IMG/VR virus record: IMGVR_UViG_3300012848_000031
Direction: 5' to 3' (one strand)
Length of the DNA: 64,000 nucleotides
Source: a virus
Shown here piece after piece: positions 4,645 through 64,000 of the stretch; within the stretch, counting starts at the first letter, position 1, and every line of letters begins with the position of its first letter. The notes beneath the pieces were generated by a model. That model did no database searches. It saw only the letters and a list, made by a program, of their open reading frames with translations, and was not told the DNA's origin. Position numbers and translations under genes: made by a program.

Positions 4645-4838
4645 GTCGTCGGTCCGTCCGCCTCGCCGCCCTGCTGCTCGCGCTGGATCCGCTCGAAGAT
4701 CTCCTCGCGGTGAACCGCGATGTTCCTCGGCGCGTTGACGCCGATCTTCACCTGGTTGCCTTTTACGCCCAGGATGGTGAGCGTGATGTCGGCGCCGATC
4801 ATTATGGTTTCGCCTGTACGTCTGGTGAGGATGAGCAT
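4641..4838 (-). CDS. csrA: Carbon storage regulator CsrA/RsmA homolog
   Basis: [54 protein letters not shown] closely follows the CsrA consensus. Confidence 0.95.
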
Positions 4839-50432: not shown

Positions 50433-51998
50433 CTAGAGCGGTGGATGGCAGAGAACCCTGCCCCCGCTACCACACGTTCCTGTACTTGACAAAAGTGCAG
50501 AGGCGTGGCTCCAGCTCCAGTGCGCCATCAGGCCGCCACCAATCTCCGGCACCAGCCGGACCTCGCCGTTGAAGGCATCCCGCAGGATCACGCGTGCCTT
50601 GAGCGAGGCCCTAGAATCGCCGGCCAGCGCCGCAGTGATCTCCCGGCGAGCCACCTCGGCGGCCTTTGGGAGCATGGAAAGGACCCTGGCTGTCTTCTTC
50701 GCCGCCGGCTGCTGCGCGAGCAGCTCGCGGCGCTTGCCCTCAGCCAGGTCGATGGCCGCCTGCAACTCATCGGGCGTCATGTCGGGATCTCCATCTTTCA
50801 GGCGGGCACGCAGCCGTCCGATTCGTGCCTCGACGTCCTGGACTTCCCGGGGAGCCGTTTGCGTGCGACTCGCAGCGGCACGCTGCTGCTCGGCATACAC
50901 CGCCCGCATCTTCTCCGCGATCCGCCTCACGCTGTCCGGCCCGAGGTCCTCTCGGAGGCGACCCAGGAGCACATCCTCAGCCCGTTTGCGCCGGATGCGC
51001 ACGCCGTTCCCGCACAACCCGCCGCCGATGTGGTTCGAGCATGCGTAGCTGTGCGCATCCGCGATGACGTAGTGCGCCCCGCACGAATCGCACTTCAGGA
51101 GCCCCGACAGCAAATACTTGGGAGTACCGCCTGACGAGCGCTGCTCTGTGGCTGGGCGAAATCGCTTTTGCGCTCGCGCGAAGAGCTCATCGCTGACGAT
51201 CCGTAGCGACTCATCGTGATGAACGATCCACTCCGAGCGTGGCCGCGCAACGCGCTTGCGCTTCCCCGTGTCCGGATCCTTTCGCCACTCGCTCGTGTTC
51301 CAGTGGATCGCGCCGGTGTACCGCTCGTTGGTCAAAATTGCGCGGACGCCCGATCCCATCCAGCCAGCGGCACGGCGCACCGAGCGGTTCCAACTCGCAC
51401 CCGGTGAAGGAATCCGGCGAGCGTTAAGGTCGCTGGCGATAGTTCGGCAGCTCTCGCCATCGGCGAACCGGCCGAAGATCTCGCGCACGATGAAGGCCTC
51501 GCCCTTATCCACCTTGCCGTCGCGATATCCGTACGCGCGGCCGCCGGTCGGCTTGTGTTCCTTTGCGCGGCTCTCGAGCGCGGCGTACGTGCGGTCTTTC
51601 ACCATGTCGCGAAACGCCTCGCCGATGATCCCGGACAGTCCGGCCTGCAGCTTGTGACCGCGGCGGTTCGAGTCGTAGCCGTCCTGCACGCCGATGACGC
51701 GGATGCCTTTCGCGACCATCCGGTCGATCATCTTCGCAAGATCGCCCGTTGAGCGGCTCAGACGCGACAGGTCGGTGACGAGCACGACATCGAAACGGCG
51801 GGCGAGCGCAGCCTCCTGCAGGCGAAGCACGCCAGGTCGGTTGCCGAGGGCGGCGCCGCTGATACCTTCGTCGCTGAACTGTTCGACTACGCGCCAGCCT
51901 TCACGCGCGGCGTGCTCGACGCACACGCGCTGCTGATCAGTGATGCTGCTCTCGTTCTGACGATCGGTGCTGAAGCGGGTGTAGATAGTAGCTTTCAT
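50433..51998 (-). CDS. Large serine recombinase (integrase 2)
   Basis: IYTRFSTDRQ, DLSRLSR, recombinase domain, LLSGLLKCDSCG...Y.C, coiled coil. Confidence 0.95.
   Translation of the reverse strand: MKATIYTRFSTDRQNESSITDQQRVCVEHAAREGWRVVEQFSDEGISGAALGNRPGVLRLQEAALARRFDVVLVTDLSRLSRSTGDLAKMIDRMVAKGIRVIGVQDGYDSNRRGHKLQAGLSGIIGEAFRDMVKDRTYAALESRAKEHKPTGGRAYGYRDGKVDKGEAFIVREIFGRFADGESCRTIASDLNARRIPSPGASWNRSVRRAAGWMGSGVRAILTNERYTGAIHWNTSEWRKDPDTGKRKRVARPRSEWIVHHDESLRIVSDELFARAQKRFRPATEQRSSGGTPKYLLSGLLKCDSCGAHYVIADAHSYACSNHIGGGLCGNGVRIRRKRAEDVLLGRLREDLGPDSVRRIAEKMRAVYAEQQRAAASRTQTAPREVQDVEARIGRLRARLKDGDPDMTPDELQAAIDLAEGKRRELLAQQPAAKKTARVLSMLPKAAEVARREITAALAGDSRASLKARVILRDAFNGEVRLVPEIGGGLMAHWSWSHASALLSSTGTCGSGGRVLCHPPL
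50457..50472 (+). other. tRNA-3'-end-like sequence, candidate att junction
   Basis: CCTGCCCCCGCTACCA, within the last codons of integrase 2 (GSGGRV). Confidence 0.5.
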
Positions 51999-52342
51999 TC
52001 CGAAGCTCTCCGGCGCTCGATCTCCGCGCCTAGTTGGCCCTGTACATTCTTGCGCGCGCCGGACGCCATATCCGCTGATATTCGGTCGAACAACTCGGAA
52101 TAAGCCAACAACTCGACAACGCTTGCGTTACGCGGTGCCTTGTAAGTGGTAAGGAAGGAATGGAGGTTCACGTGATACTCGCGACCCAACCCATCGCCGG
52201 GACCTTGCATGATCGCAAGCGCCAAGGCATCGCCTCTTGAAGTCACAGCGCCCAGCCGCTCCAAAAAACCGCGAACATACTGCTTGCGTGCGTGGTGTTC
52301 GGCACGCCGTTCTTCGGTTGTCTTTTGTCGCGCCATGATCAC
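51995..52342 (-). CDS. Hypothetical protein
   Basis: ATGA-coupled to integrase; lower GC. Confidence 0.65.
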   Translation of the reverse strand: MIMARQKTTEERRAEHHARKQYVRGFLERLGAVTSRGDALALAIMQGPGDGLGREYHVNLHSFLTTYKAPRNASVVELLAYSELFDRISADMASGARKNVQGQLGAEIERRRASE

Positions 52343-52521
52343 TTCGCCTTCCGATACATCGCGAGCACGATGTCGACGCCCTCACGGATGTACGCCTGTT
52401 GCGGGACGCGCGTCGCGGCGCTCAGCGCTTTGAGTCCTTCGGCCTGCTCAGGGTCCAGATATGCCTGAACCGGTATCTTCTTCAATCGCAGGGTGTTTCG
52501 CTTTGTCTTCTTACGGGCCAC
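52339..52521 (-). CDS. Ribbon-helix-helix (CopG-like) regulator
   Basis: VQAYLDPEQAEGLKALSAATRVPQQAYIREGVD. Confidence 0.75.
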   Translation of the reverse strand: MARKKTKRNTLRLKKIPVQAYLDPEQAEGLKALSAATRVPQQAYIREGVDIVLAMYRKAK

Positions 52522-52537
52522 TGATGCGCCTTTGCAT

Positions 52538-52561
52538 TGCCACCACGTGCTAATGGTAGCA
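52538..52561. promoter_or_regulatory. Inverted repeat in divergent intergenic region
   Basis: TGCCACCA-N8-TGGTAGCA. Confidence 0.45.
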
Positions 52562-52570
52562 TAAGGAACT

Positions 52571-53146
52571 ATGAAGTCCAGGCGGTTTGACCGGGGCACG
52601 CCGATGAAGAAGAAAAACGTTCGAGTGAAGGTAGTTCAGTTGTCGGGCGGCAGGAGCGTGCGCGTCTGCGTCGCGCCTGATCTGATGCCGAACAAGTACG
52701 GGACCGCGTATACCCGCACCAAGCCGGCCGGGGGCGGATGGATCGTCGAGATCTTCGATATGCCGCCTGAGCAATTGATTGGTAATTACTTGGCTTTGCG
52801 ATCAAGGGGCCTTCCAGTGGAGGGCTTGCAAACGGAGATCGACGCGCTACTACGGCGATGGCTCAACGGAACTGATGCACGCACCGTCTTCTATCGTGAA
52901 AAGCAAAAGCGGAACATACGCTCGCCGGGGGAAAAGTTGGGCATGGCTATGTGCGCCGAAGTCATGCGACTCACTTCTAAGGGCATCGTTGAGGCTGAGG
53001 CCAAACGGGCCGTAGCCGACGCGTTTGGCGCGGAGGTTCGGACGGTCCAACGGCATTTCGCTCAGTATCAACCGAAGCTTGCACAGCAAGTCGACTTTAT
53101 GGGGGTCTACACGAAGAGGCTCATGTTCCGACGAGCGTTGGACTGA
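52571..53146 (+). CDS. Protein with C-terminal HTH (regulator)
   Basis: AEAKRAVADAFGAEVRTVQRHF. Confidence 0.6.
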   Translation: MKSRRFDRGTPMKKKNVRVKVVQLSGGRSVRVCVAPDLMPNKYGTAYTRTKPAGGGWIVEIFDMPPEQLIGNYLALRSRGLPVEGLQTEIDALLRRWLNGTDARTVFYREKQKRNIRSPGEKLGMAMCAEVMRLTSKGIVEAEAKRAVADAFGAEVRTVQRHFAQYQPKLAQQVDFMGVYTKRLMFRRALD

Positions 53147-53228
53147 ATCTGCGACACGAGATTTGTCAATAATTCTGTCGCGCCACCCAGAACGCTGACT
53201 ACTAACGTCCCACGTACCTAGGAGATAC

Positions 53229-53432
53229 GTGGACGAAATAGTGTATTTCTCGCTGGCCGTCGCAGCCGTGCGGATCGATCCGATACGCCCCCCGAGCATC
53301 GACACGATGCGTCGGTGGCATGACACCATTCACGGGCCGCGCGACACCTACGGACGGCGCATCTGGACGCCGGAGATCTGCGAGGCCGTCTGCCAAGCGC
53401 GTCTTGCCGCGCGGAACACGTCCACTACGTGA
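53229..53432 (+). CDS. Excisionase/AlpA-like small HTH protein
   Basis: SIDTMRRW...RDTYGRRIWT (MerR-type wing); GGAG RBS. Confidence 0.6.
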   Translation: MDEIVYFSLAVAAVRIDPIRPPSIDTMRRWHDTIHGPRDTYGRRIWTPEICEAVCQARLAARNTSTT

Positions 53433-53581
53433 GTTCCGCCGCATCGTTCCTTACGCCGGCCCAGCTCGACGAACTCGAGTGGGCCATCGCGCGCGCGGCA
53501 GTGCAGCGACTGATCAACGAAGCATCCGAAAACGAAAACGCCCCGCAGGACCGGCCAGGTGACTGCGGGGCGCGCGGATGA
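53429..53581 (+). CDS. Small protein coupled to helicase
   Basis: GTGA and ATGA overlaps; LEWAIARAAVQRL. Confidence 0.45.
   Translation: MSSAASFLTPAQLDELEWAIARAAVQRLINEASENENAPQDRPGDCGARG
53528..53572 (-). terminator. Hairpin with minus-strand T tail
   Basis: CGCCCCGCAG (53539-53548) / CTGCGGGGCG (53563-53572), minus-strand tail TTTTCGTTTT. Confidence 0.5.
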
Positions 53582-55269
53582 CGACGAGGATCGATGTCGT
53601 CCGCGAACAGCTTGTTGCAGCCGCCTCAGAGGAATATGTCCTCGGCAGCCTGCTGGTCGACGCGGCAACCTGGGCCGCCGCCCGGGACCTGACACCCACC
53701 CACTTCGCCAGACCCGCTCACAGCACCATTTACGCGGCGATTGCCGATCGCGCGTCCGCCGGGCGAGAAGTGGATCCGGTCCTTGTAGCAGAAAGCCTCC
53801 AAGCTGATGGGCACCTCGAGGAAGTAGGCGGCCTCGGATACATCGGCGATCTTGCGCGCAACACGACCAGCACCGCGAACATCCTGAGCCACGTCGAAGT
53901 GCTGAAGGAGTACGCGCAACGCCGGTGCCTGGCGGATCTGGGAGACCTCATCGCGCGGCGCGCCAGGTCCGCCGCCGCGGAATCAGTCGATCAGATCGCG
54001 AAGGAGGCGCTGGAGAGCATCCGGACTCTCGCGCCAGCCGCCCCCCATTCAATTCAGGCGCTCTCTCTGACGACCGATGACCTGCTCGGCACGGTGGAAC
54101 CCGAGCGCATGCTGCTCCCGGGAATCCCCACTGAAGCGTACTCGCTGATCGCCGGCGCCCTAAGCTCCTACAAATCAACTCTCCTGATTTACCTCGCGCT
54201 CTGGCGCGCCACAGGCTTCGATCTGCTGGACCTCGACCCGGGAGGCTCTGGTGTCGATATCGGTCCGGTGATGCTCGTGTTCTACGAGGACTCGGATCGC
54301 AGGATGGTGAATCGCTTCCGGCGCATCACTCAGGCCGCCCACGCGCAGATCCGAGCCGTTCACGGAATCGCCGATGCCGACAGGTTCATCCGGTGCGCCG
54401 CCGCCAACATCCGCCGGGTGCCACTGACCGGCCAGGCCGGTGCTACGATCGTGCGGAGGGCCGAATCAACCTGCGTGCCCAACTTCGGTCTGATAGACGA
54501 ACTCAAGCGCGCCGCTCACACATTCACTCAGTCGGACCTTCTGCTCGCGCTCGACCCTCTGAGACTCGCCATCGTCGGCAGCCAGAACGACGATGACGGT
54601 GCGGACGTTGTGGTCCACACACTTAACCATATGGCCACGATGATGCCCAACTCCGGCCTCGCGGTCGCCTCACACACGACCAAAGCCGAAGCTCGGGAAC
54701 CGGCCGAAGGCTACACCGCCGCCGCCTACGCTACCTCGGGCTCGGCGCTCTACAGCCAGCACGCCCGCAGCAACTTCCTCATGTTTCGGCTGCGGCCCGA
54801 TGCCGCCGCGCCCTTCGCGCCCAACCTCTCCCCGGCAGAGCTCGCACGGCAACCGATCGCGAAGCTGATCCACGGGCGGCTTAGCCATGGCGCCGAGTCC
54901 GGTGAACGCGTGCTCCAAATGAAGGACGGCATTCTCGTGCCGCTCGCCACCCGCAAGGAGCCCGACACCGCGAGCAAGATGGTGGAGTTCGGGCACATCG
55001 TCGCCCAGGCCCTCGAACGTCTCGCCGCCAGCGGCGTGCGCGCCTCGGCAACGGCCCTACGCGAGGACCCGGAGATACGGCGCTACGGCGGGTCAGACGG
55101 CAAGGTGCGCCGCCTACTCTCGCTCCTGGAAGAGAACGGCTACCTCGTGTTCGAGGGCAAGACCAAGGATCGCGTCGGTACGCTCACGCCGAATGGGCGG
55201 GCAATCTTCGCAGCCACGAATCATCACGAAACCCACCAAGGAGGGGGTCGCACTCATGGCGCCGACTGA
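53578..55269 (+). CDS. DnaB N-terminal domain fused to RepA/AAA_25-type helicase
   Basis: E..VLGSLL...HF..PAH..IY.AI...VDPV.V...L....LEEVGGL.YI.DL; GALSSYKST, YED, LDPL, SHTTK. Confidence 0.75.
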   Translation: MTTRIDVVREQLVAAASEEYVLGSLLVDAATWAAARDLTPTHFARPAHSTIYAAIADRASAGREVDPVLVAESLQADGHLEEVGGLGYIGDLARNTTSTANILSHVEVLKEYAQRRCLADLGDLIARRARSAAAESVDQIAKEALESIRTLAPAAPHSIQALSLTTDDLLGTVEPERMLLPGIPTEAYSLIAGALSSYKSTLLIYLALWRATGFDLLDLDPGGSGVDIGPVMLVFYEDSDRRMVNRFRRITQAAHAQIRAVHGIADADRFIRCAAANIRRVPLTGQAGATIVRRAESTCVPNFGLIDELKRAAHTFTQSDLLLALDPLRLAIVGSQNDDDGADVVVHTLNHMATMMPNSGLAVASHTTKAEAREPAEGYTAAAYATSGSALYSQHARSNFLMFRLRPDAAAPFAPNLSPAELARQPIAKLIHGRLSHGAESGERVLQMKDGILVPLATRKEPDTASKMVEFGHIVAQALERLAASGVRASATALREDPEIRRYGGSDGKVRRLLSLLEENGYLVFEGKTKDRVGTLTPNGRAIFAATNHHETHQGGGRTHGAD

Positions 55270-55393
55270 GCATTTGATTCGTGATACGCCCCTAACGGGG
55301 GGATGTCGTCACGAATCGAATGACGACTCCCCCCGCTGTCCCCCGTTTCGTGGCGAATCACGAGTATCACGAATCATCACGAATGCCCACGAA
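55215..55393. repeat. CACGAA iteron cluster (putative origin)
   Basis: CACGAA at 55215, 55225, 55310, 55368, 55378, 55388; CACGAG at 55359; inverted at 55278, 55347. Confidence 0.75.
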
Positions 55394-55583
55394 AGGAGGA
55401 AAGACCCTGCGCTCCCGACTTTCTCGGCCGCCTAAAAAAGGGCACGCCCTCGCATCGCCCCAATCTTTCGCATGCTGTGTTCGTCGGCGTGCAGGGTCAG
55501 GTGGTAGCGGGGACCCGATTTGTACGCCTACGGAGGAAGTTCAGTTGAGTCAGAGAGTTGCTCGAAATCATCACTCCGGGCGG

Positions 55584-55766
55584 ATGTTCCCTTCGGTTCC
55601 CCTGGCCGTGACGAAGCGTGGCCGCCGCTGGGCGCAGTGCCCGGAGTGCACGGCGATCTGCGCGCGGATCCCGCCCGGCGCGATGGACCACGTGTGCACT
55701 CACTGCCAGGCCGCATTTACGCTCGTCGCGGACGGCCGTAGCGCGTCTAGCGAGGTGCAGGCGTGA
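55584..55766 (+). CDS. Zn-ribbon protein
   Basis: CPEC...CTHC. Confidence 0.55.
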   Translation: MFPSVPLAVTKRGRRWAQCPECTAICARIPPGAMDHVCTHCQAAFTLVADGRSASSEVQA

Positions 55767-55852
55767 TCGCCCTCGCTGTCATCGCGGTGCTCCTGATACT
55801 GGTGGAGGCCGGGGCAACGGTTGCCTTGGTCTGGGAGGCGTGGCGCTCATGA
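55763..55852 (+). CDS. Tiny hydrophobic peptide
   Basis: GTGA/ATGA coupling; 29 aa single TM. Confidence 0.35.
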   Translation: MIALAVIAVLLILVEAGATVALVWEAWRS

Positions 55853-56298
55853 CGCGCAAGGTCACCACACCGCCCCCCGGGCCGCTCGTTGCGATTCACG
55901 GCCTCAAGAAGCAGCCGCCAACGGATGCCGCAGCCCGGATCGAGGAGTACGCCGCCGACGGTTTTACCGTGCCAGGAATCGCCGGGAAGCTCGGGGTTGC
56001 CAAGAGCACCCTCCAGAACTGGATGCAGGAGAACGCGGAGCTTGCCGACGCGCTTTCGCGCGGGCGAGCGAAGGAGGAGCACGCCCTATCCAAGCGCCTG
56101 TATCGGATTGCCATGGAATCCGACGACAAGGCGGCCGTCACCGCCTGCATCTTCCTGCTGAAGGGGAAGTTCGGTTGGCGCGAGGGCGAGCGCCCCGAGG
56201 AAGGCAACCGGGTGAACATCACCTTCAATCTGCCCGGTGCAATGTCGCGCGAGGACTTCTTGAAGACAGTTGTGCCGGCGGAGGTGACCCGTGACTGA
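55849..56298 (+). CDS. Terminase small subunit-like HTH protein
   Basis: GIAGKLGVAKSTLQNW...LSRGR...L...A...A.IFLLKGKFGWRE; overlaps terL start. Confidence 0.7.
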   Translation: MTRKVTTPPPGPLVAIHGLKKQPPTDAAARIEEYAADGFTVPGIAGKLGVAKSTLQNWMQENAELADALSRGRAKEEHALSKRLYRIAMESDDKAAVTACIFLLKGKFGWREGERPEEGNRVNITFNLPGAMSREDFLKTVVPAEVTRD

Positions 56299-57706
56299 GC
56301 CGGCCACTCAGATGCGCCTCTCACCACTTCAGCAGCGCGTGCTCGGCCTGCCGGAGCTGTACGACCTCTTCCTGGGCGGCGGGCGTGGAGGCGCCAAGAC
56401 CTACACGCTGCTGCTGCTCGCCTTGCGGTTCGTCGCGCAGTACACCGACCGCGCGCGCGTGCTGTTGCTGAGATTGACTTACAAGGGGCTCGCCGATATC
56501 GAGCTGCAGAGCCGCATGCTATTCGCGGAGGTCTTCGGCACCGACGCGAGATACAACCAGGCGGAACACACCTGGAGACTCCCGAACGGCGGATATCTGG
56601 AGTTCGGGCAACTCGAATCCGCCGCCGACTACACAAAGTATCAGGGCAGAAACTTTGGTCTGCTGCTGGTCGATGAAGCCGGCCAGTACGCCTCCCCCGA
56701 TCTGCTCGACCTCGTGCGCTCCAACCTGCGCGGCCCGAAGGATGTGCCGACTCGTGTGGTGATGAGCGCGAATCCGGGCGGGCCTGGGCATCACTGGCTC
56801 GCGCGGCGCTACGTGTTTCGTGCGGCTCCCTGGACGCCGTTCCACGAAGAAAAATCGAAGCGAGAGTGGATCTACTGCCCGACCACTTACCTCGACAACC
56901 CGTTCATCGATGCCCAGCAGTATCGTGATCAGCTCGAAAGCGCCTGCCCCTCAGACCCCGAGCTTCTCCGCGCGTGGCTCGAAGGTGACTGGGCAGTTGC
57001 ACGTGGTGCGTACTTCGCCAAGACGCTCGAGGAGTCGCGCATTGCCGTCGGACCGTTCACGCCGGGCAAGCTGCCAACGACGCGTGAGATCCCCAAGGGC
57101 AAGCACTACGCCGAAAGCGTTCCATGGGACATCTGGCTTGCGCTCGACCACGGAAGCGCCGCGCCGTCCGTGTGCTACCTGATGGCACGGAGCCCTGGCG
57201 CAAGCTACGAAGACAAATTCTACCCGCGCGACTCCATTCTGGTCCTCGATGAGTACGCGATATATCGGCGGGATAACCTGAATTTGGGCCTCGGCTGGAC
57301 TGCAGCCCAGACTGCGGAAGCCATTGTCGAGTGGTGCAGGACGTGGCACGTGAAGCCGCGTGGAGTGGCGGACGATGCGTGCTTCAGCAGCACCGGCCAT
57401 AACACGACGATCGCGGATGAATACGCGCGGTGCGGCGTGACACTCGAACCTGCTCGCAAGGGCGACCGTGTGTCAGGTTGGCACCGGATGCGCCGGATGC
57501 TCGCCGATGCCGGCAAGCCCGATGTGCCCGGGCTCTACGTCTCACGCGGCTGCGAGTACTTCTGGTCGACGGTCCCTTACCTTGCCCGCGACTCGAAGCG
57601 AATAGAAGACGTCGACTCGAGCGGCCCCGACCACGGTGCTGACGCGCTTAGGTATGGGCTTCTCCGCGTCAAACACGTTACGCGAATCACGCCCCTCCAC
57701 ATCTGA
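56291..57706 (+). CDS. terL: Terminase large subunit
   Basis: GGRGGAKT, LVDEAGQY, SANPGGPGHHWL, DNPF, WLEGDW, LDHG, DHGADALRYG. Confidence 0.9.
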   Translation: MTEPATQMRLSPLQQRVLGLPELYDLFLGGGRGGAKTYTLLLLALRFVAQYTDRARVLLLRLTYKGLADIELQSRMLFAEVFGTDARYNQAEHTWRLPNGGYLEFGQLESAADYTKYQGRNFGLLLVDEAGQYASPDLLDLVRSNLRGPKDVPTRVVMSANPGGPGHHWLARRYVFRAAPWTPFHEEKSKREWIYCPTTYLDNPFIDAQQYRDQLESACPSDPELLRAWLEGDWAVARGAYFAKTLEESRIAVGPFTPGKLPTTREIPKGKHYAESVPWDIWLALDHGSAAPSVCYLMARSPGASYEDKFYPRDSILVLDEYAIYRRDNLNLGLGWTAAQTAEAIVEWCRTWHVKPRGVADDACFSSTGHNTTIADEYARCGVTLEPARKGDRVSGWHRMRRMLADAGKPDVPGLYVSRGCEYFWSTVPYLARDSKRIEDVDSSGPDHGADALRYGLLRVKHVTRITPLHI

Positions 57707-57729
57707 CAATCCACACGAAGGAACCGATC

Positions 57730-57924
57730 ATGAAACTGAAACCCATCGCAACCAACGACGCCGCCATGGCCGCCCAGTCGGTCGCGGATGTCCAACGCGC
57801 TCGCGAAGCGGTCACGCAGCGCGAAACGGCGACCCAGCGCTTGCGTGACGAGGGCGATCGAATCGCCGATCAGCGCGCCGCCATCAACCGCCACTATTAC
57901 GCCACGAACGGCGGTGCGAAATGA
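57730..57924 (+). CDS. Small coiled-coil protein
   Basis: AAGGAA RBS; ATGA-coupled downstream. Confidence 0.6.
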   Translation: MKLKPIATNDAAMAAQSVADVQRAREAVTQRETATQRLRDEGDRIADQRAAINRHYYATNGGAK

Positions 57925-58793
57925 CCGCCCGATTTCGATACATCGATGGCAACGGCATCGAACAACCACTCATCCGAAGTGACTGGACCTTCCCGACGGA
58001 TGATGGCGACTTCGCGACTTTGTACAACGTCGCGAAGTCCAGCGCCGAGTTGGTCACGCAGTTTCACGCGAAGCGCGCGGCGCTGGGCGTGAACATCACG
58101 CCGGCCGAGCAGGCGGAGGCCATCAGAAAAGGTCCCACCGCGCTGGACGAGCTCTATCGCGCGCGGCGCGCACTGGCGGAGCGCGCCCTCGCGTTCCTGA
58201 CCCTGGAGACGCTCGCGACGCGCGAAGGCGGCCCAGTCACTGGGCTGCGCGCGATCGAAATGAGCCTTCCGGTGCGTGCGCGGGGGCTGGCGAAGATCGA
58301 GCCCTGGAACCCACAAACCCTGGCTATTGATCGGTGGCTCCTCGATGTGCTGATGAGCAAAGGCGCCACGGAACGAACTCAGTTCATGCTCGAAATGAAG
58401 GACGGCCAGCACAGCGCGACAGCTCGTGCACTACTGCGGACCGCGGACGTGCCCGAGTTGCTCCCCCTGAAGCTCGCCGAGCCAGACCTCACGGCCATCA
58501 CGAACGCCGTCGCGAGGTGCGAGGCGCCGCAACAGATGGCCGCGCTCGATGAGCTGCACCACGCGGCCGTCGTCGCACGCGCCACCTGGAAGGCATCGGT
58601 CTCGCGGATCGCGGAGGCCTCCGGCCTCGAGCGCGAAGACCTTGCGAAGACGTTGGGCGCCTCGCTGGTTCGCTACGAACAGCCGGGCCACGACGGCCTC
58701 AATGACCCGCACTGGGCCGAGTTCATCGGGACGGGGCGAAGGAGAGAAAGCGCTCCAGCCCCAGCTAATGCCCTGTCCTTCATCGCTAACTAA
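57921..58793 (+). CDS. Unknown helical protein (290 aa)
   Basis: Intact ORF with coding codon bias; no family recognised. Confidence 0.75.
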   Translation: MTARFRYIDGNGIEQPLIRSDWTFPTDDGDFATLYNVAKSSAELVTQFHAKRAALGVNITPAEQAEAIRKGPTALDELYRARRALAERALAFLTLETLATREGGPVTGLRAIEMSLPVRARGLAKIEPWNPQTLAIDRWLLDVLMSKGATERTQFMLEMKDGQHSATARALLRTADVPELLPLKLAEPDLTAITNAVARCEAPQQMAALDELHHAAVVARATWKASVSRIAEASGLEREDLAKTLGASLVRYEQPGHDGLNDPHWAEFIGTGRRRESAPAPANALSFIAN

Positions 58794-58921
58794 TGCAAGA
58801 GGGCGTTTTACTCGTGAGTCACGCCAAGCAACGAAGCAACCGCGAGCGCCCGCGGGGCTGGTCTGGTTTCGTACCTACTCCGCCGCCCGCGGCGGGCAAT
58901 TATTAACGAGGAGATCATTAC

Positions 58922-60667
58922 ATGGCGGTAGCTTTCCCATCGTCCACCCAGACGGCGTCGTCCGATGCGGCTGGCGGCGGTTCGGTCAACGTCAACGTCA
59001 ACCCGCCGTCAGGCCTCACGACCGGCGATGTGTGGGCGATTGTCGCTGTGCTCGACCACGACTCCTCGACGATCGCTACGCCTTCCGGCTTCACGCCCGC
59101 GCACGCACAGCTCGACGGCACGCCAGGGTATCCCGGTGTCCGGACATACTGGAAGATTGCAGGCGACAGCGAGTCGGCCGTCAACGTCTCATCGAGCGGT
59201 GGTCAGAACTACGTTCTGTGGTGCGCCTCGGTCCGCATCACCGGCGCGAACACGGCGAATCCGATCGGCAACGTCGCGACGACCACGCCGACCGGAACGG
59301 GCACGACGCTCGGCGCGCCGAGCGTCACGATCCAGAACGCTGGCTCAGGCGCGCTGCTCATCTTGGCAGCCTCACCGCCCTCAGGCTCACTATCGATCAC
59401 GCAGCCGAGTGGCTCGACGATGCTGCAGGCACGTCATCAGGGGAACGACTTTCCGTCGGGCGCCGTGGCGTACGAGTTGCGCAACGCGGGCTCGTACTCG
59501 CCCGGTACCTGGTCACTCCATGGGGCCAACGTTGGCGAAGGTCGCATCGGCGTAACGATCGAGATTCTGCCGGCTGGAGGAGGCGGCGGCGGCTCCGCGC
59601 TCCCCATACTCATTGCGAACCATCGAGGTCGCCAAATGTTCGACATCGTCAAGAAGGGCTCCACCGATCGGTCGGTCAAGGTCCACATCATGGACGCTAC
59701 CTCTGGAGCGCCAGAGACAGGCACCGTATACAACACTTCGGGCCTCGATCTGTGGTATCGCCGCGAGGGCGGTGCACGCACGGCTATCACTGAAGCGACA
59801 CTCGCTTCTCTCACAGCCGCGCACGCCGATGGCGGGTTTCTGCACATTTCGGACGGCGACTATCGTCTCGACATGCCAGACGCCGCATATTCCACCGGAG
59901 CGAACTTCTTCGACTTCGGCGGTACCGTCACCGGCAAGATCGTAATCGGTGGCCGCGTACGACTGGTCGACATCGATCCCGAGGACACGATACGCGCCGG
60001 CCTCACCGCGCTTCCGAACGCGGTGGCCTCCGCCAGCGGCGGCCTCTTCACGCGCGGCTCCGGCGCAGGTCAGATCAATCAGGACGCGAACGGACGCATC
60101 GACGTCAACATCGTAGCCGTCAGCGAGGATGCGACGGCCGCGCAGAACCTCGAATCCTACTGCGATGGCACGACGCCGATTCCTGCCAACGTCACGCAGT
60201 TCGGTGGCTCGAACGGCACGTTTGCGAGCGGGCGGCCGGAGGTCAACGTTTCGCACTACGGCGGCTCGGCCGGCACGTTCTCCGGCGGCATCCCTGCGGT
60301 GAACACGGTGCAGTGGCGCGGCGTGCAGCCGAGCAACCTCGCGAGCGGCCGGGTTGATGCGACCGTAGGGGCCATGCAGTCGGCGGTCGTGACCGCAACG
60401 GCGATCGCCGAGGATGCGATCGGGGCAAGCGAACTGGCCACCGACGCCGTGACGGAGATCGTGAACGCGATCAAGGCGGCGGTCGTTGAGACGCAGGGCT
60501 CCATCACGCTGCAACAGGCGCTGTCGGTGATGCTCGCGGTGCTCGCCGGCGAAAGCGAGAACGGCGGCAACACGTTCCTGTCGCCCAACGGCGAGGCGAC
60601 GCGTGTCACCGCGACGACGAACGGCAACAAGGAACGTACGGCGATGTCGCTGACGCCGAGCTCGTAA
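58922..60667 (+). CDS. Two-part protein: N-terminal domain shared with 28430..30736, C-terminal domain of unknown function
   Basis: GAGGAG RBS; manual alignment; GGGGGGS linker. Confidence 0.85.
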   Translation: MAVAFPSSTQTASSDAAGGGSVNVNVNPPSGLTTGDVWAIVAVLDHDSSTIATPSGFTPAHAQLDGTPGYPGVRTYWKIAGDSESAVNVSSSGGQNYVLWCASVRITGANTANPIGNVATTTPTGTGTTLGAPSVTIQNAGSGALLILAASPPSGSLSITQPSGSTMLQARHQGNDFPSGAVAYELRNAGSYSPGTWSLHGANVGEGRIGVTIEILPAGGGGGGSALPILIANHRGRQMFDIVKKGSTDRSVKVHIMDATSGAPETGTVYNTSGLDLWYRREGGARTAITEATLASLTAAHADGGFLHISDGDYRLDMPDAAYSTGANFFDFGGTVTGKIVIGGRVRLVDIDPEDTIRAGLTALPNAVASASGGLFTRGSGAGQINQDANGRIDVNIVAVSEDATAAQNLESYCDGTTPIPANVTQFGGSNGTFASGRPEVNVSHYGGSAGTFSGGIPAVNTVQWRGVQPSNLASGRVDATVGAMQSAVVTATAIAEDAIGASELATDAVTEIVNAIKAAVVETQGSITLQQALSVMLAVLAGESENGGNTFLSPNGEATRVTATTNGNKERTAMSLTPSS

Positions 60668-61287
60668 TGAGCACGACCTCCTGGTCGATCGACTTGCGTG
60701 CCTGGGCCGAGGGCGTGAAGGCCGATATCGACACCGTGGTTCGGGAGGTCGCTCTCGAGCTGCTCACGCGGATCGTCATGCGCTCCCCGGTGGGCAATCC
60801 CGAGATCTGGGCCGCGAACGCCGAGGTGATGCGCCAACGCGCCTCGTACAACGACAACGTGGCGCGCACAAACTCGCTGATCGATGCGCATCCCGAATGG
60901 CGTCTGAAGTACGGGCGACTGAAGAAGCAACGCACCGCGAGTGCGCGAACGATCAACCGGAAACTGCCGCTGCCGACTGGCAAGGGCTACGTCGGCGGAC
61001 GTTTCAGAGCGAATTGGCGAGTATCGATCGGTGCGCCGGACACTCGCACGTATCCCGAGACCGTGCTCGATCCGACGGGCCAGATATCGATCGGCGCCGG
61101 CATCGATGCGCTCGGCACGTACCGAACTTCAGATGGCACGATTCACATCATGAATTCGCTTCCGTATGCGCAAGCCTTGGAGTTTCAAAGTCATTCCAAG
61201 CAGGCGCCGGCCGGCATGGTGAGAGTGACAATCGCGGAGGTCGCACAGGTGGTCGCCGCGAAGGTGAGAGAAGTTTCCAACACATAG
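60667..61287 (+). CDS. HK97 gp10-like tail-completion protein
   Basis: IVMRSPVG...GGRFRANW.VS.G.P...NSLPYA..LE...S.QAPAGMVR. Confidence 0.75.
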   Translation: MSTTSWSIDLRAWAEGVKADIDTVVREVALELLTRIVMRSPVGNPEIWAANAEVMRQRASYNDNVARTNSLIDAHPEWRLKYGRLKKQRTASARTINRKLPLPTGKGYVGGRFRANWRVSIGAPDTRTYPETVLDPTGQISIGAGIDALGTYRTSDGTIHIMNSLPYAQALEFQSHSKQAPAGMVRVTIAEVAQVVAAKVREVSNT

Positions 61288-61298
61288 GAGATTCAACG

Positions 61299-61604
61299 AT
61301 GACTTTTAGACTCAATGCAGACCCGACGTTCCTGGCTACGGTGAAAATCCCGAAGGCTGGCACCAAGCCCGAAGCAATAAATTTCACCTTCAAACACCGA
61401 AAAAAGGGCGAGTTCGACGCCTTCCTCAAGGGCGCCAAGGATCTACCCGACGTCGACTACATTTTTGAGATCGCGCTGGGCTGGGATCTCGATGACGAAT
61501 TCAACAGGGAGAATGTCGCTCGGCTCCTCGAGAACTATCACGGGGCCGCACAGGCCATCACGCTCACGTACGTGAGCGAGCTCAGCGGCACCTCGTTGTC
61601 CTAA
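61299..61604 (+). CDS. Tail assembly chaperone
   Basis: F.L...PTF...VKIP..G...I.FTFKHR...GWDL.DEF..ENV..LL.NY. Confidence 0.8.
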   Translation: MTFRLNADPTFLATVKIPKAGTKPEAINFTFKHRKKGEFDAFLKGAKDLPDVDYIFEIALGWDLDDEFNRENVARLLENYHGAAQAITLTYVSELSGTSLS

Positions 61605-61625
61605 CCCAGAAGGGGGCGCTCCGCC

Positions 61626-64000
61626 ATGACGAACACCATCGCGGGTATCGGAGTCGTTATTGATGCTTCCCAAGCGAACGCTGCCAGCGTTGCACTCGAT
61701 CGGTTCGTCACGGCGACGGACCGAGCACAGGCAGGTGCGCGGGGGCTTGCCAGTTCGTCAAGCGCCTCGGCGGCCTCGCAGCGGGCGGTATCCACCGCGA
61801 GCCAACTCGTGGCGACTCAGCAGATACGCGCCACGCAGACGATGCAAGCCGCGACGCTGACCGCCGGACAGTATTCGCAAGCTCTGCGGATGCTGCCGGC
61901 GCAGATCACGGACATCGTGACGGGCTTGGCGAGCGGCCAGAGCGCATTCATGGTCGCCATCCAGCAGGGCGGCCAGCTTCGCGACATGTTCGGTGGAGTG
62001 GGCGCCGCCCTGCGTGCGGTCGGCACATTGCTCACCCCCGTGCGCCTCGCGATCGGGGGCACCGCGGCGGTCGGCGCCGTGTTCGCCAAGGTGCTCGCCG
62101 ACGGACAGCGCGAAGCGTTCGAGCTGAACCGCGCGCTGATCCTTTCGGGCAATTCCGCCGACGTCACGACCGGACAACTTGCGCTCATGGCGCGCGAGCT
62201 CGATCGGATATCCGGTACGCGTGCACAGGCGAGCGCCGCATTGACTGCCGTGCTGGCCGCCGGGATCAAAGGCAATGTGGCGCAACAGGTGGCTCAGGTT
62301 GCCGGCCAGCTCGAGCGCATCGCGGGCATCCCGATGGATGAGGTGATCGAGCAGTTCGCGGCGCTCGGAGAGCGACCGAGCGAGGCCGCCGTGAAACTCA
62401 CTCGGCAGTACAACTTCCTCACGGCCGAGCTCTATACGCAGATTCGGGCGCTCGAACGCGAGGGCCAGGTCGCCGAAGCGACCCGCATCGCGCAGGCGGC
62501 GCTGGCCGACACGCTGCAGACACGAGTCACGCAGCTCCAGGGACATCTGGGGGCCGTTCCACGGGCCTGGAAGGCCATCGCGGGTGCTGCAAAAGAAGCC
62601 TGGGATGCGATGCTCGACCTGGGGCGTGAGCGCACCCCGGAGGAAGAACTCGAACAGCTGCTGCGCGCACGCGCAGGACGTTTCAGAGCCCCGATGCGCG
62701 GCGGCGGGCCTGCGGTAGAAAATCCTCGCATCGCAGAGCTGAGGGCACTGGTCGCAGAGCGCCGGCGCCAGGCCGAGGCGGACGCGGCCAAGAGCGCAGA
62801 GCTCACTCAGGCGCTCGAAGACGAAGCACTGGCGGCGGTCCGCGCCGCATCGGCCGGGCAAGTGGCGGCGGCCGCGTTCCAGGCGAGCAACGCTGCGATC
62901 TCTCGCGAGCTCGAGGCACTGACGCAGGACGTGACCGCACGCGAACGCCTGTTACAGGCTCAGCGCGATGGGCGTCTCATCACCGAGGCCCAGTACTACG
63001 ACGAGCGGCGCAAACTCGTGGAAGCCGATCGGCACGCGCGCGTCGCCGCCCTGGAAGCCGAGAACCGCCTCCTCGAGGCCCAAGCCGCCCAGATCCGCAG
63101 GGCCGCTCAGGAGGCAGCAGAACGCGCGAAATCGCCCGCCGAACGGCTCACCGCGGAGCTCGCCGTCCAACCACAGATCATCGCGAACCAGTCACGCATC
63201 GCCGACAACACTGCCAGGATCGATCGCCTCAATGCCGAGGCGGCCGCGAGCGCAACGTTGTTCGGTGTGGAGCAGCAGAGCGCGGGCAGGAAGGCTGAGA
63301 TCACCTATAACGACGCGCGCGCGGCGGCGGAGGAGTACCTGGCGACGCTGCAGCGCCGGCAGCGCCTGGAACTCGAGGGGATAGGCGCCGGCGAGCGGAC
63401 GCGTGAGCGTAATGCGGGCCGCGCGGAACTGGAGCAGGACTATACCCGACAGCGCCAGCAGCTCGACCGCGACTTGCGGCGCGGGCAAATTACCAAGGAG
63501 GCCTACGATCGCGATTTGCGACTGACCGAGGAGTTCCAGCAGCGCGCGCTGGGCTCCTATGACCAATACTGGGATGAGCTGACCGAGAAACAGGGCAGCT
63601 TCTTCGTCGGTGCCTCCGAAGCCCTGCGCAACTACGTCGATGAATCACGGAACACAGCCGGCCAGGTCGGCGATGCGTTCTCGCGCGCACTCAACGGCGC
63701 GACGGACTCACTCGTGAAGTTCGCCATGACCGGTAAAGGCAGTTTCAAGGACCTCGCCAATTCGATCATCGCGGACCTGCTGCGCATAAGCCTTCAGAAA
63801 AGTATCGCAGGCGCCCTTGGCGGGGCGCTCGGCGGGATCTTCGGCGGAGGCGGCTCTGCGGCCGATGGCCTCTTCGGGGCTTCGAACATCGTTCAGGGCG
63901 AGAACGATTGGTGGAAAAAGATCGGCGGGGTTCTGGGGTTCGCGGCCGGAGGCAACCCTCCGGTTGGTCGTGTCTCACTCGTGGGCGAACGCGGCCCCGA
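61626..64000 (+). CDS. Lambda-type tape measure protein (3' end beyond window)
   Basis: Manual translation: LPAQITDIVTGLASGQ...QQGGQLRDMFGG at N-terminus; TG.G.FKD.A.SII.DL and FAAGG...VGERGP near window end. Confidence 0.9.
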   Translation, partial: MTNTIAGIGVVIDASQANAASVALDRFVTATDRAQAGARGLASSSSASAASQRAVSTASQLVATQQIRATQTMQAATLTAGQYSQALRMLPAQITDIVTGLASGQSAFMVAIQQGGQLRDMFGGVGAALRAVGTLLTPVRLAIGGTAAVGAVFAKVLADGQREAFELNRALILSGNSADVTTGQLALMARELDRISGTRAQASAALTAVLAAGIKGNVAQQVAQVAGQLERIAGIPMDEVIEQFAALGERPSEAAVKLTRQYNFLTAELYTQIRALEREGQVAEATRIAQAALADTLQTRVTQLQGHLGAVPRAWKAIAGAAKEAWDAMLDLGRERTPEEELEQLLRARAGRFRAPMRGGGPAVENPRIAELRALVAERRRQAEADAAKSAELTQALEDEALAAVRAASAGQVAAAAFQASNAAISRELEALTQDVTARERLLQAQRDGRLITEAQYYDERRKLVEADRHARVAALEAENRLLEAQAAQIRRAAQEAAERAKSPAERLTAELAVQPQIIANQSRIADNTARIDRLNAEAAASATLFGVEQQSAGRKAEITYNDARAAAEEYLATLQRRQRLELEGIGAGERTRERNAGRAELEQDYTRQRQQLDRDLRRGQITKEAYDRDLRLTEEFQQRALGSYDQYWDELTEKQGSFFVGASEALRNYVDESRNTAGQVGDAFSRALNGATDSLVKFAMTGKGSFKDLANSIIADLLRISLQKSIAGALGGALGGIFGGGGSAADGLFGASNIVQGENDWWKKIGGVLGFAAGGNPPVGRVSLVGERGP

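Follow-up and report, generated by a model that had tools for sequence, protein, structure and literature searches.

Gene content of the locus

The window, by which we mean the whole 64,000-nucleotide stretch of DNA that was analysed, holds at its right-hand end most of an integrative island, whose features are collected in Table 1. Its leftmost gene encodes a protein with Resolvase, Recombinase and Zn-ribbon domains, which together fulfil the definition of a large serine recombinase; the island integrase is thus not a tyrosine recombinase. The rightward operon is opened by the gene for a 191-aa protein, which is divergent from the RHH regulator gene, and is continued by a DnaB-like helicase gene (55% identical to that of the related island L064), a probable replication origin in the form of an iteron cluster, a terminase pair and a set of tail-assembly genes. 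The first-pass annotation of this DNA had named an integrase, a helicase and iterons, terS and terL, and a gp10-like gene, a tail chaperone and a tape measure, all of which were borne out by Pfam or PHROG profile matches and, for the iterons, by the clustering of the CACGAAW motif. It had also called an excisionase-like HTH protein, which found no support, as neither the 67-aa protein (the candidate) nor an 80-aa ORF matched any family. The GTGA, ATGA and TAATG overlaps from which it had inferred intact, coupled genes are real, and the gene frames are backed by GC3 frame analysis.

Table 1 Features of the island inside the window, with positions counted from the first letter of the window.
Feature	Position	Strand	Basis
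Large serine recombinase (integrase), 521 aa	50433..51998	-	Pfam Resolvase 3e-29, Recombinase 1e-21, Zn_ribbon_recom 2e-7
Left att core (CCTGCCCCCGCTACCA), prophage/satellite junction	50457..50472	+	Copy of tRNA-Met 3' end
115-aa protein, function unknown	51995..52342	-	4-nt overlap with recombinase gene; no Pfam/PHROG match
RHH regulator, 86 aa	52339..52599	-	Pfam RHH_3, E 1e-11
191-aa protein, function unknown	52571..53146	+	Gene call on source contig; no family match
67-aa small protein, function unknown	53229..53432	+	Gene call on source contig; no family match
DnaB-like replicative helicase, 563 aa	53578..55269	+	Pfam DnaB N-terminal domain 4e-22, AAA_25; phrog_19
Iteron cluster, CACGAAW in both orientations	55215..55394	.	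8 of the 23 copies in the 64-kb window inside 180 bp
TerS, 149 aa	55849..56298	+	phrog_309, E 1e-17
TerL, 471 aa, intact	56291..57706	+	Pfam Terminase_3, Terminase_6N; phrog_2
64-aa protein, function unknown	57730..57924	+	ORF, GC3, ATGA coupling to next gene
P0001, 290-aa all-helical protein	57921..58793	+	AF2 model; conserved accessory gene among relatives
P0002, 581 aa, LamG-like domain fused to 345-aa phage protein (Ig-like sandwich and fibrous part)	58922..60667	+	Homology, fold hints
HK97-gp10-like tail-completion/Neck1 protein, 206 aa	60667..61287	+	phrog_169, E 7e-45; phrog_17193, E 1.5e-11
Tail assembly chaperone (TAC), 101 aa	61299..61604	+	Pfam Phage_TAC_4 (PF08748), E 1e-23; gene call
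Tape measure protein (TMP), 860 aa in full	61626..64000, ends 208 bp past window	+	TMP_2 3e-56, Tape_meas_lam_C 5e-25; phrog_24, E 1e-141

TerL scored 49.5 bits against Terminase_3 (cut-off 23.2) and has all of the many columns that are invariant in 22 homologues (e.g. G30, G31, R32, G33, K36 and E129). Apart from its PHROG assignment, TerS gave only weak matches (GP3_package, Sf6_terminase and HTH_23), and in most of the relative loci that were fetched a TerS homologue precedes TerL. A TerL without a portal of its own would need to be compatible with a foreign portal, and there is no proof that it is.

Of the tail-assembly proteins, Neck1 had no Pfam match, and homologues with 42–48% identity are encoded in the related islands L001, L004 and L064. 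No long frameshift extension of the TAC gene was found in the -1 or +1 frame. The TMP, the full length of which was read from contig L091 (12705-15287), reached 190.8 bits for TMP_2 and 87.9 bits for Tape_meas_lam_C, both above the cut-offs, and was accordingly classed as a lambda-H-type tape measure.

Two large proteins of unknown function are encoded between the terminase and the tail genes. P0001 was modelled as helical bundles (pLDDT 87, pTM 0.80), without a specific match in PDB, BFVD or Atlas and with matches in AFDB only to uncharacterised proteins; just 10 cluster representatives were found in 1.84 billion proteins. Its homologues adjoin gp10-like, TAC or TMP genes in L004, L031 and L064, and in L006 and L007 they are preceded by an 83-aa gene. 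The confident all-helical model ruled P0001 out as a capsid, portal or tube protein. Residues 1-220 of P0002, the product of the shared-domain gene of the first-pass annotation, match prophage gene 28430 at 67% identity, and residues 225-581 reach up to 73% identity with 345-aa proteins that stand alone and in complete phages come after a Laminin_G_3 gene. P0002 is probably a virion-surface or fibre protein; a role as a hidden head or tube protein was rejected, as the phages in which its homologues are found encode a portal and a capsid themselves.

Boundaries of the island and absence of head genes

The contig L091 is identical to the window across 15,079 bp and supplied the DNA past position 64000, where the 208-bp remainder of the TMP gene is succeeded by three small genes and an att repeat, beyond which lie host genes for Ank, bactofilin, LacI and RecQ. 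The island thus does not end with the window but extends to window-equivalent position ~65395. Its left att core is repeated exactly, over 16 nt, at L091 16459-16474 (window-equivalent 65380-65395), and also repeats the 3' end of a tRNA-Met(CAT) gene (L094 14957-15033) over 16-22 nt. This gene is located 118 bp ahead of the window start, and together with three copies of its 3' end it brackets a prophage and the island in tandem, giving an island length of 14,907 bp between direct copies of the tRNA-Met 3' end. The serine recombinase ORF runs across the left att core. With att sites and an integrase at its left end, the island fulfils one generic criterion for a phage satellite, that of being small and equipped for its own integration. 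An empty integration site was looked for and none was found.

When every ORF of the island was scanned against Pfam and PHROG, genes for portal, capsid, protease, tube, terminator, baseplate and lysis proteins were all missing, and the island thereby also fulfils the satellite criterion of an incomplete virion and lysis gene set. The absence of recognisable portal, protease, capsid, terminator and major tail genes had been noted at first pass, together with the proposal that the sequence beyond 64,000 be checked for them; the absence held in the ORF scans, in the folds of P0001 and P0002 and in the downstream DNA, which contains no capsid, portal or tube genes. The same was seen on a wider scale in 102 ORFs from eight such islands, in which the TMP and TerL families were matched in all eight, while a recurrent family for portal, capsid, tube or lysis proteins was absent from the 25 commonest Pfam families, as were protease and head-tail adaptor families.

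Related islands

At least seven other islands (L001/L002, L004/L005, L012, L013, L031, L064 and L072) have terminase and TMP in common with the window at 41–70% identity (30% for the L013 TMP), and several of them have the gp10-like and TAC genes in common with it as well. These islands are ~15 kb or less, adjoin host genes and carry varied integrases and replicases. In a TerL tree, the window falls inside a clade of six TMP-type islands (SH-aLRT 99%), and the TerL proteins nearest to its own are encoded in genomes of Steroidobacteraceae and Burkholderiales. More than 1,200 TerL homologues were found, the best 120 of which are 62–71% identical.

The TerL clade was found in ~77 small islands from many phyla, among which no portal gene was seen. 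About 36 of these, including L008, L016, L019 and L053, encode a scaffold and a Gp13-like capsid protein, with TerL 53–66% identical to that of the window and TerS from the same clade. They share the layout of the window (integrase, replicase, variable module, TerS, TerL) and likewise lack a portal, but have scaffold and capsid genes, and not Neck1, TAC and TMP, in the slot upstream of terS. Scaffold and capsid genes were never seen together with TMP among the islands of the TerL clade.

These relatives bear on whether the island is a functional element at all. Terminase, Neck1, TAC and TMP all belong to ordinary phage families, homologues of the TMP are plentiful in lambda-like phages (at 34–36% identity or less), and only the integrated form, never an excised one, was seen in the three public runs that hold this DNA, as could be expected if a lambda-like siphovirus prophage had lost the block from portal to tail tube by deletion, had become immobile and were now decaying. 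We nevertheless regard such a remnant as very improbable: every gene is intact and translationally coupled, the island spans exactly 14.9 kb between clean att repeats and has an integrase at one end, and the same reduced gene set recurs in the other islands, which are small and not full siphoviruses themselves, in combination with different integrases and replicases. Furthermore, the order of TerL, accessory genes, Neck1, TAC and TMP varies among the relatives by rearrangement and not by nested deletions. The TerL clade was not found in 50,697 phage genomes, in which the best match is only ~30% identical, and the island is therefore not viewed as a deleted siphovirus, in line with the streamlining over decay that the first-pass annotation had favoured.

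Defence-like cargo follows TerL in some relatives: DruA and HATPase genes are located close to P0017, and L004 has a Gp49/HTH pair. The island might accordingly serve mainly for defence or interference, with its terminase and tail parts poisoning the assembly of an infecting phage (a decoy TerL on the portal, tails of wrong length or dead-end tails) rather than spreading the island. Satellites are known to block their helpers via packaging and tail assembly, Rta of PLE11 targets the TMP (PMC12987554), and the Tai systems are reported as another example (PMC11364771); in addition, P0001 is conserved without belonging to a known fold family, which is also how Rta is described. A mainly interfering role is still unlikely in our view, since the integrase, the helicase-iteron replicon and the full TerS-TerL pair are what a self-packaged element needs, and TerS has been kept beside TerL in most relative loci, which points to specific recognition of the island's own DNA. 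Interference and spread are moreover not mutually exclusive among known satellites. The locus is thus probably most of a complete and intact 14.9-kb integrative phage satellite with helper-dependent spread, of which excision, packaging and transfer are inferred.

Comparison to known satellites

The island was compared to the described satellite types, with the closest likeness in tail-gene content found in the PLEs of Vibrio cholerae, satellites of ICP1 (Mathur, Boyd et al., Nature 2026, PMC12987554). These are also small, integrative and capsid-less and encode their own TMP, TAC and one further tail part; they take the remaining tail from the helper, as is inferred for the island. The comparison was already drawn at first pass for the chaperone and tape measure and is in print (PMC12987554); the likeness is one of gene content, without homology data. 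The third tail part is a baseplate hub in PLEs and a Neck1/tail-completion protein in the island. PLEs have a RepA_N replicon, a virulent myovirus helper and a Vibrio host, in contrast to the DnaB-like helicase replicon of the island. PLEs also lack a terminase of their own and are reported to manipulate the packaging motor of the helper (PMC11417361), whereas the island has both TerS and TerL.

Both terminase subunits are found in cf-PICIs (Alqurainy et al. 2023; SatelliteFinder model, PMC10085698), and putative tmp genes have been reported for some of these elements (PMC12987554, Extended Data Fig. 10). However, the defining genes of cf-PICIs are those for capsid, protease, portal and head-tail adaptor/connector, and only tails are stolen; the island has TerL but no capsid, protease, portal or adaptor, and it carries the tail genes that are forbidden in the SatelliteFinder model (PMC10085698). 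Classical PICIs and SaPIs resemble the island in their size of ~15 kb, integrase, regulatory switch, own replication module, TerS and, by inference for the island, dependence on a helper for virion proteins, but they lack the TerL and tail genes that the island has, as well as its serine recombinase. The corresponding model has an integrase, an AlpA-type regulator, Pri-Rep and TerS as its core and forbids tail and holin genes (PMC10085698); the island does not fit it, having the integrase and TerS with RHH and DnaB-like genes in place, no family match to AlpA or Pri-Rep in the Pfam and PHROG scans, and TAC, TMP and Neck1 present. The same ORF scans gave no match to a P4-type Psu-Delta-Sid operon or an alpha-type primase, although very distant analogues would escape them.

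A small size and a tape measure gene are further shared with the EPIP satellites of Mycolicibacterium (PMC12822802), which like the island also have a serine integrase and TerS, and with putative E. coli satellites encoding RepA_N replication-initiator homologues (Barth et al. 2023, PMC10448857), in both cases by gene content and without homology data. Unlike the island, which has TerL and no capsid, both groups possess a major capsid protein, have no reported TerL and belong to other phyla or host groups. The combination of TerS-TerL with TMP, TAC and Neck1 in the absence of head genes is thus new with respect to both PLEs, which have their own TMP and TAC, and cf-PICIs, which have their own TerL.

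The adjacent prophage and a possible mode of spread

The neighbour of the island, in tandem with it at one tRNA gene, is a full myovirus prophage of 50,574 bp with a contractile (sheath-type) tail. The helper phage has not been identified; this prophage is the only phage in view, and any helper identity is inferred only. That it is the helper, with the island using its heads, sheath and tube and swapping in its own Neck1, TAC and TMP, is possible but doubtful. The two elements use the same tRNA-Met att core with related recombinases (39% identical), and the LamG domain is the sole stretch common to both (67% amino-acid and ~70% nucleotide identity). The prophage has counterparts of exactly these three island genes, i.e. 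Neck1 (phrog_222), TAC (phrog_1688) and a TMP of 574 aa, in parallel to the pairing of PLE with ICP1, another myovirus. The island/prophage size ratio of 0.29 is close to those of P4/P2 and SaPI1/80alpha. On the other hand, the TMP and TAC of the island are of the lambda-H type, typical of non-contractile tails, and no similarity to the prophage was detected for Neck1 at sequence or profile level or, by tblastn against the prophage DNA, for TAC and TMP. Unrelated elements also commonly insert in tandem at tRNA genes, and the island relatives lack such a neighbour within the 10-kb flanks examined.

Whichever phage serves as helper, its growth in the cell would be expected to lead to excision and replication of the satellite. 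The TerS-TerL pair of the island may then recognise the island's own DNA and pack it into procapsids built from portal and capsid proteins of the helper, and the island TMP, TAC and Neck1 could substitute for their helper counterparts, giving chimeric tails that would consist for the most part of tube and tip proteins from the helper. The first-pass reading of an element that borrows head and tube but controls DNA packaging and tail assembly itself is supported, while the borrowing as such is inferred. Experimental precedent for chimeric tails from satellite and helper parts comes from the Vibrio PLEs, for which incorporation of the satellite TMP, TAC and hub was demonstrated (PMC12987554).

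The island most likely represents a widespread and apparently undescribed family of satellites, which standard satellite finders reject by design, as tail genes are forbidden in their PICI and cf-PICI models.

Gene content of the island

The window is GC-rich (~65%), and its reading frames are clearly marked by third-position GC. The gene set that the first-pass annotation had observed on the island, including the gene overlaps GTGA, ATGA and TAATG quoted there, was borne out with two corrections: the integrase is present, its class being that of the serine recombinases, and the "excisionase-like HTH" found no support in any family search made. The genes are listed from left to right in the table below. 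A frameshifted portal gene across 57.9–60.7 kb was considered and ruled out, as GC3 backs two separate frames. A canonical G/GT frameshift in the chaperone gene was likewise rejected, no long alternative frame being present; the middle of this gene contains an A AAA AAG heptamer, after which the −1 frame closes at ~20 codons, making a GT-type fusion unlikely. A promoter and terminator scan returned nothing above chance.

Positions of the features discussed, in window coordinates unless a locus is named
Feature	Position	Size	Family or remark
Neighbouring prophage	1–50456	50,574 bp	Fills this part of the window
Prophage CsrA	4641–4838		Pfam CsrA
Prophage LamG domain	28430–29095		Gene 28430
Left att copy	50457–50472	16 nt	CCTGCCCCCGCTACCA, just inside 3' end of recombinase gene
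Large serine recombinase		521 aa	Island left end, minus strand; Resolvase, Recombinase, Zn_ribbon_recom domains
Gene without assigned function		115 aa	After serine recombinase
RHH regulator			After 115-aa gene
Two genes without assigned function		191 and 67 aa	Head of rightward operon
DnaB-like helicase		563 aa	Rightward operon
CACGAAW repeats (n=8)	At helicase stop	180 bp	23 copies in whole 64-kb window
Zinc-ribbon ORF		Small	Between CACGAAW cluster and TerS
TerS			phrog_309, E 1e-17
TerL			Terminase_3; after TerS
64-aa gene		64 aa	After TerL, before P0001
P0001	57921–58793 (+)	290 aa	Between 64-aa gene and P0002
P0002	58922–60667 (+)	581 aa	Between P0001 and Neck1
P0002 LamG region	58922–59580		Variable position 59203
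Tail-completion/Neck1 protein		206 aa	HK97-gp10-like; phrog_169, E 7e-45
Tail chaperone (TAC)		101 aa	Phage_TAC_4
A AAA AAG heptamer	61400–61406		Within chaperone gene
Tape measure (TMP)			Two lambda-H domains; last gene within window
Right att copy	65380–65395 (window-equivalent)		CCTGCCCCCGCTACCA, after last small gene
tRNA-Met(CAT) gene	L094, 14957–15033		Left-flank locus
Lambda-J-like tip protein	L003, 8274–11135	953 aa	Island relative
Gp49 (HigB-like)/HTH pair	L004, 11073–11878		Island relative
Main-branch layout	L016, 7884–11365		Island relative
Capsid, gp10-like and I-like genes	L057, 7380–9560		Lysobacter island
LamG and 345-aa protein genes	L089, 509–2301; L090, 9295–11038		Complete phages
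TnpB gene between TerL and portal	L090, 14630–15802 and 17206–19284		OrfB_IS605/Cas12f-like TnpB; positions cover TnpB and MuF-like genes

Boundaries and flanking DNA

The island protein P0002 was found on a 615-kb metagenome contig, in which locus L091 is identical to the window over 15,079 bp (zero mismatches) and extends it to the right. The tape measure gene stops there 208 bp beyond the window end, giving a full protein of 860 aa, and is followed by three small leftward genes (96, 66 and 62 aa) without any family match and, beyond a gap, by host genes (ankyrin, bactofilin, AtaL, LacI and RecQ). A source of head or tail-tube proteins, whose discovery downstream could have overturned the first-pass view of the element as capsid-less, is absent from the DNA past position 64000.

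The att core CCTGCCCCCGCTACCA is present at both ends of the island and corresponds to the 3' end of a tRNA-Met(CAT) gene, which directly adjoins the serine recombinase of the neighbouring prophage. The order is thus tRNA-Met, the prophage, an att copy, the 14,907-bp island, an att copy and host genes. Prophage and island, each with its own large serine recombinase, are integrated in tandem into a single tRNA-Met(CAT) gene, and both recombinase ORFs run through the att core into the flank, that of the prophage overlapping the tRNA gene by 44 nt. Serine recombinases aimed at the 3' end of a tRNA seem unusual. A look-up of the empty site via the flanking Ank gene gave occupied sites only, and in three public insect-metagenome runs containing this DNA (contigs only), which may be its source, the integrated form alone was seen, with no joint at the att sites; no RNA data set was listed as containing it. 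Two of the three runs have C instead of T at position 59203, inside the LamG region common to the prophage, which may reflect either strain variation or mixing of the two LamG copies during assembly.

Relatives of the island

The protein collection contains more than 1,200 TerL homologs, the best 120 at 62–71% identity, and all readable contexts of these relatives are small islands. The one at L001/L002 has genes for a DUF3987 primase and a tyrosine integrase, followed by a gp10-like protein, TAC, a 1001-aa TMP, TerS and TerL, then a few small genes and host ABC-transporter genes. The L004/L005 island encodes LamG-like, gp10-like and P0001-like proteins, TMP, TerS and TerL, and in L003 (same record as L073) TerS and TerL are directly followed by a 953-aa protein resembling the lambda-J central tail fiber (phrog_31, phrog_469) and then host genes; this island would be a satellite with its own host-recognition tip. 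Among 50,697 phage genomes, the best match to the island TerL reached only ~30% identity and that to its TMP 36%, and megablast of the element against phages gave no match. That the island is a recent deletion derivative of a siphovirus, the alternative named in the first-pass annotation, is very unlikely on this sequence evidence, because the relatives proved to be small islands with reduced gene sets, not full siphoviruses, and no close phage TerL or TMP was found. The Ralstonia "phage" records with the best TMP matches were set aside as uninformative, being unverified and unannotated and containing TAC and TMP without this TerL.

A further island, the context of P0017, combines a serine recombinase and a D5-type primase with TerS, TerL and cargo of a defence-like kind; the genes downstream of its TerL encode DruA, a sigma factor and two proteins of the HATPase_c_3 family. 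In L004, a Gp49 (HigB-like)/HTH pair lies downstream of TerL. Such genes fit defence or addiction cargo on satellites.

Using an alignment-based TerL profile, 80 loci were recovered from species-representative genomes of six phyla (Pseudomonadota, Acidobacteriota, Bacteroidota, Balneolota, Thermodesulfobacteriota and Verrucomicrobiota); a single-protein TerL scan of genome contigs had given none. Clustering of every ORF of 77 loci revealed a common plan, with a tyrosine integrase ~6.8 kb and a replicase ~4.2 kb upstream of TerL, and neither a conserved gene after TerL nor a conserved portal-sized gene. In ~36 loci, a 189-aa coiled-coil protein and a ~333-aa Gp13-like major capsid protein precede TerS and TerL. 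Eight loci, including that of the window, encode a tape measure instead, the capsid/scaffold pair being found in none of them. A Pfam scan of the 102 ORFs of these eight loci detected TMP and TerL families in all eight and TAC in three, and the 25 commonest Pfam families included no recurrent portal, capsid, protease, tube or lysis family. In a TerL tree, built from a quick search only, the window falls within a clade of six TMP-type islands (99% SH-aLRT support), and TMP-type content arose on at least three occasions among islands of the capsid type.

The main branch of the TerL clade (L008, L016, L019, L053, L077 and ~30 more) comprises ~8–10-kb islands with an integrase, a replicase, a coiled-coil scaffold-like protein, a Gp13-like major capsid protein, TerS and TerL, and no portal. 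It seems to represent a portal-less satellite type of the "capsid plus terminase" kind, for which no description was found. One Lysobacter island (L057) has capsid, gp10-like and lambda tail-assembly-protein-I-like genes upstream of terS, and capsid and tail parts are thus not strictly exclusive.

Proteins P0001 and P0002

Only ten cluster representatives of P0001 were found among 1.84 billion proteins. Its AlphaFold model, with 13 family members aligned, is confident (pLDDT 87, pTM 0.80) and consists of long helical bundles and two short N-terminal hairpins, which rules out a portal as well as the HK97 capsid fold and the beta-rich fold of a tail tube; a disguised head or tube gene was accordingly rejected. 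The fold had no specific match in the PDB (Foldseek), BFVD or ESM Atlas, a wide PDB structure search returned generic helical bundles only (Z 9 or less), and its AFDB cluster matches are uncharacterized proteins throughout.

In P0002, residues 1–220 form a LamG-like jelly roll, and residues 225–581 share up to 73% identity with free-standing 345-aa proteins, which in complete phages follow a separate Laminin_G_3 gene just upstream of terS. These phages encode a DUF4055 portal and a Gp13-like capsid protein of their own. The first domain of the C-terminal part is an Ig-like sandwich with a weak likeness to siphophage baseplate proteins (Z 5.6–7.1), values that are within the chance range for Ig-like folds, and the model of this part is poor (pLDDT 64). 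P0002 is most likely a surface or fiber protein, not a structural core protein.

In the complete phages L089 and L090, LamG and the 345-aa protein are encoded by two separate adjacent genes, which are fused in the island; the LamG copy of the neighbouring prophage is joined to a different tail, 470 aa long. Judged from sequence, this is clear domain shuffling at a conserved N-terminal module. L090, a related complete phage, also carries a TnpB gene between TerL and portal, and its MuF-like gene has an intein-splicing domain match.

The neighbouring prophage as a potential helper

The neighbouring prophage is a complete contractile-tail phage. Its genes encode a Terminase_3 TerL, a Phage_portal_3 portal, a MuF-like protein, a DUF2213 protein, a major capsid protein, a DUF3383 sheath-like protein, Neck1 (phrog_222), TAC (phrog_1688), a 574-aa TMP and a baseplate hub. 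It also encodes a near-canonical CsrA, with a Pfam CsrA match on the source contig, in agreement with another first-pass observation. That this prophage serves as the helper of the island is conceivable, if somewhat unlikely. The two share the tRNA-Met att core, their serine recombinases are 39% identical, and their LamG domains share 67% amino-acid and ~70% nucleotide identity, the sole similarity between them apart from the recombinase genes; the prophage moreover has a counterpart for each of the three tail parts of the island, recalling PLE and ICP1. However, the island TMP and chaperone belong to the lambda-H type, the two Neck1 proteins could not be aligned by BLASTP or hhalign, and tblastn of the island TAC and TMP against the prophage DNA gave no similarity.

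Comparison with known satellites

Incorporation of a satellite's own TMP, TAC and hub into the tails of its helper has been shown for PLEs alone, and some cf-PICIs and PLE-like elements have predicted tmp genes (PMC12987554). In cf-PICIs, TerL is accompanied by capsid, protease, portal and connector genes (PMC10085698), whereas the island encodes TerL without these. EPIPs (PMC12822802) and the E. coli islands of Barth et al. (PMC10448857) differ in combining TMP with a capsid gene; the latter are stated to be without terminase genes (PMC10448857), and the EPIP gene list has TerS as the only terminase (PMC12822802). No satellite with TerS, TerL and Neck1/TAC/TMP and without capsid genes was described in the literature searched. 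Satellites are usually recognized by missing functions, and SatelliteFinder counts tail genes as forbidden components, taking them as proof of a phage, so that such islands are rejected by design and the family of the island cannot be reported by this tool (PMC10085698).

Proposed mechanism and implications

The gene content of the island, the intactness of its genes, its boundaries and its family were established here; excision, replication, packaging and helper use are inferred from established satellite biology, and there is no evidence of activity. Upon growth of a helper, the island would be derepressed, excised by its serine recombinase, perhaps with a small protein as directionality factor, and replicated via the helicase and iterons. 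TerS would bind the island's own pac or cos site and TerL would dock on procapsids made by the helper; with the island at 14.9 kb and a helper at perhaps 45–50 kb, several copies might be packed into one head of normal size, or a small head might be made. The chaperone-TMP pair may initiate tail assembly from the tip and tube proteins of the helper, with Neck1 capping them for head joining, and the conserved helical P0001 is, as a guess, a candidate redirector of head or tail assembly. Escape from exclusion or defence targeting the helper TMP is a possible benefit, which is speculative and without direct evidence.

As a joint reading, which we consider unlikely and offer only tentatively, the island would belong to a large undescribed portal-less satellite lineage built on a private TerS-TerL pair and one exchangeable virion-part slot, holding either scaffold and capsid or Neck1, chaperone and tape measure, in some cases with a J-like tip or I-like protein. 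The tail version would build its own tape measure and neck into helper tails and may evade TMP-directed exclusion or defence in helper-carrying cells, and P0001 may divert helper assembly to satellite parts.

The combination of a private packaging motor without portal or capsid and of tail-length and head-tail-joining parts without a tube appears to be new, and implies that a satellite may take over two virion-assembly steps while making neither head nor tail. Genome annotation probably counts islands of this kind wrongly as "incomplete prophages". The family provides a natural experiment on the adaptation of a terminase to a foreign portal, and would extend the chimeric-tail idea, shown so far for Vibrio PLEs only, to many soil and water bacteria.
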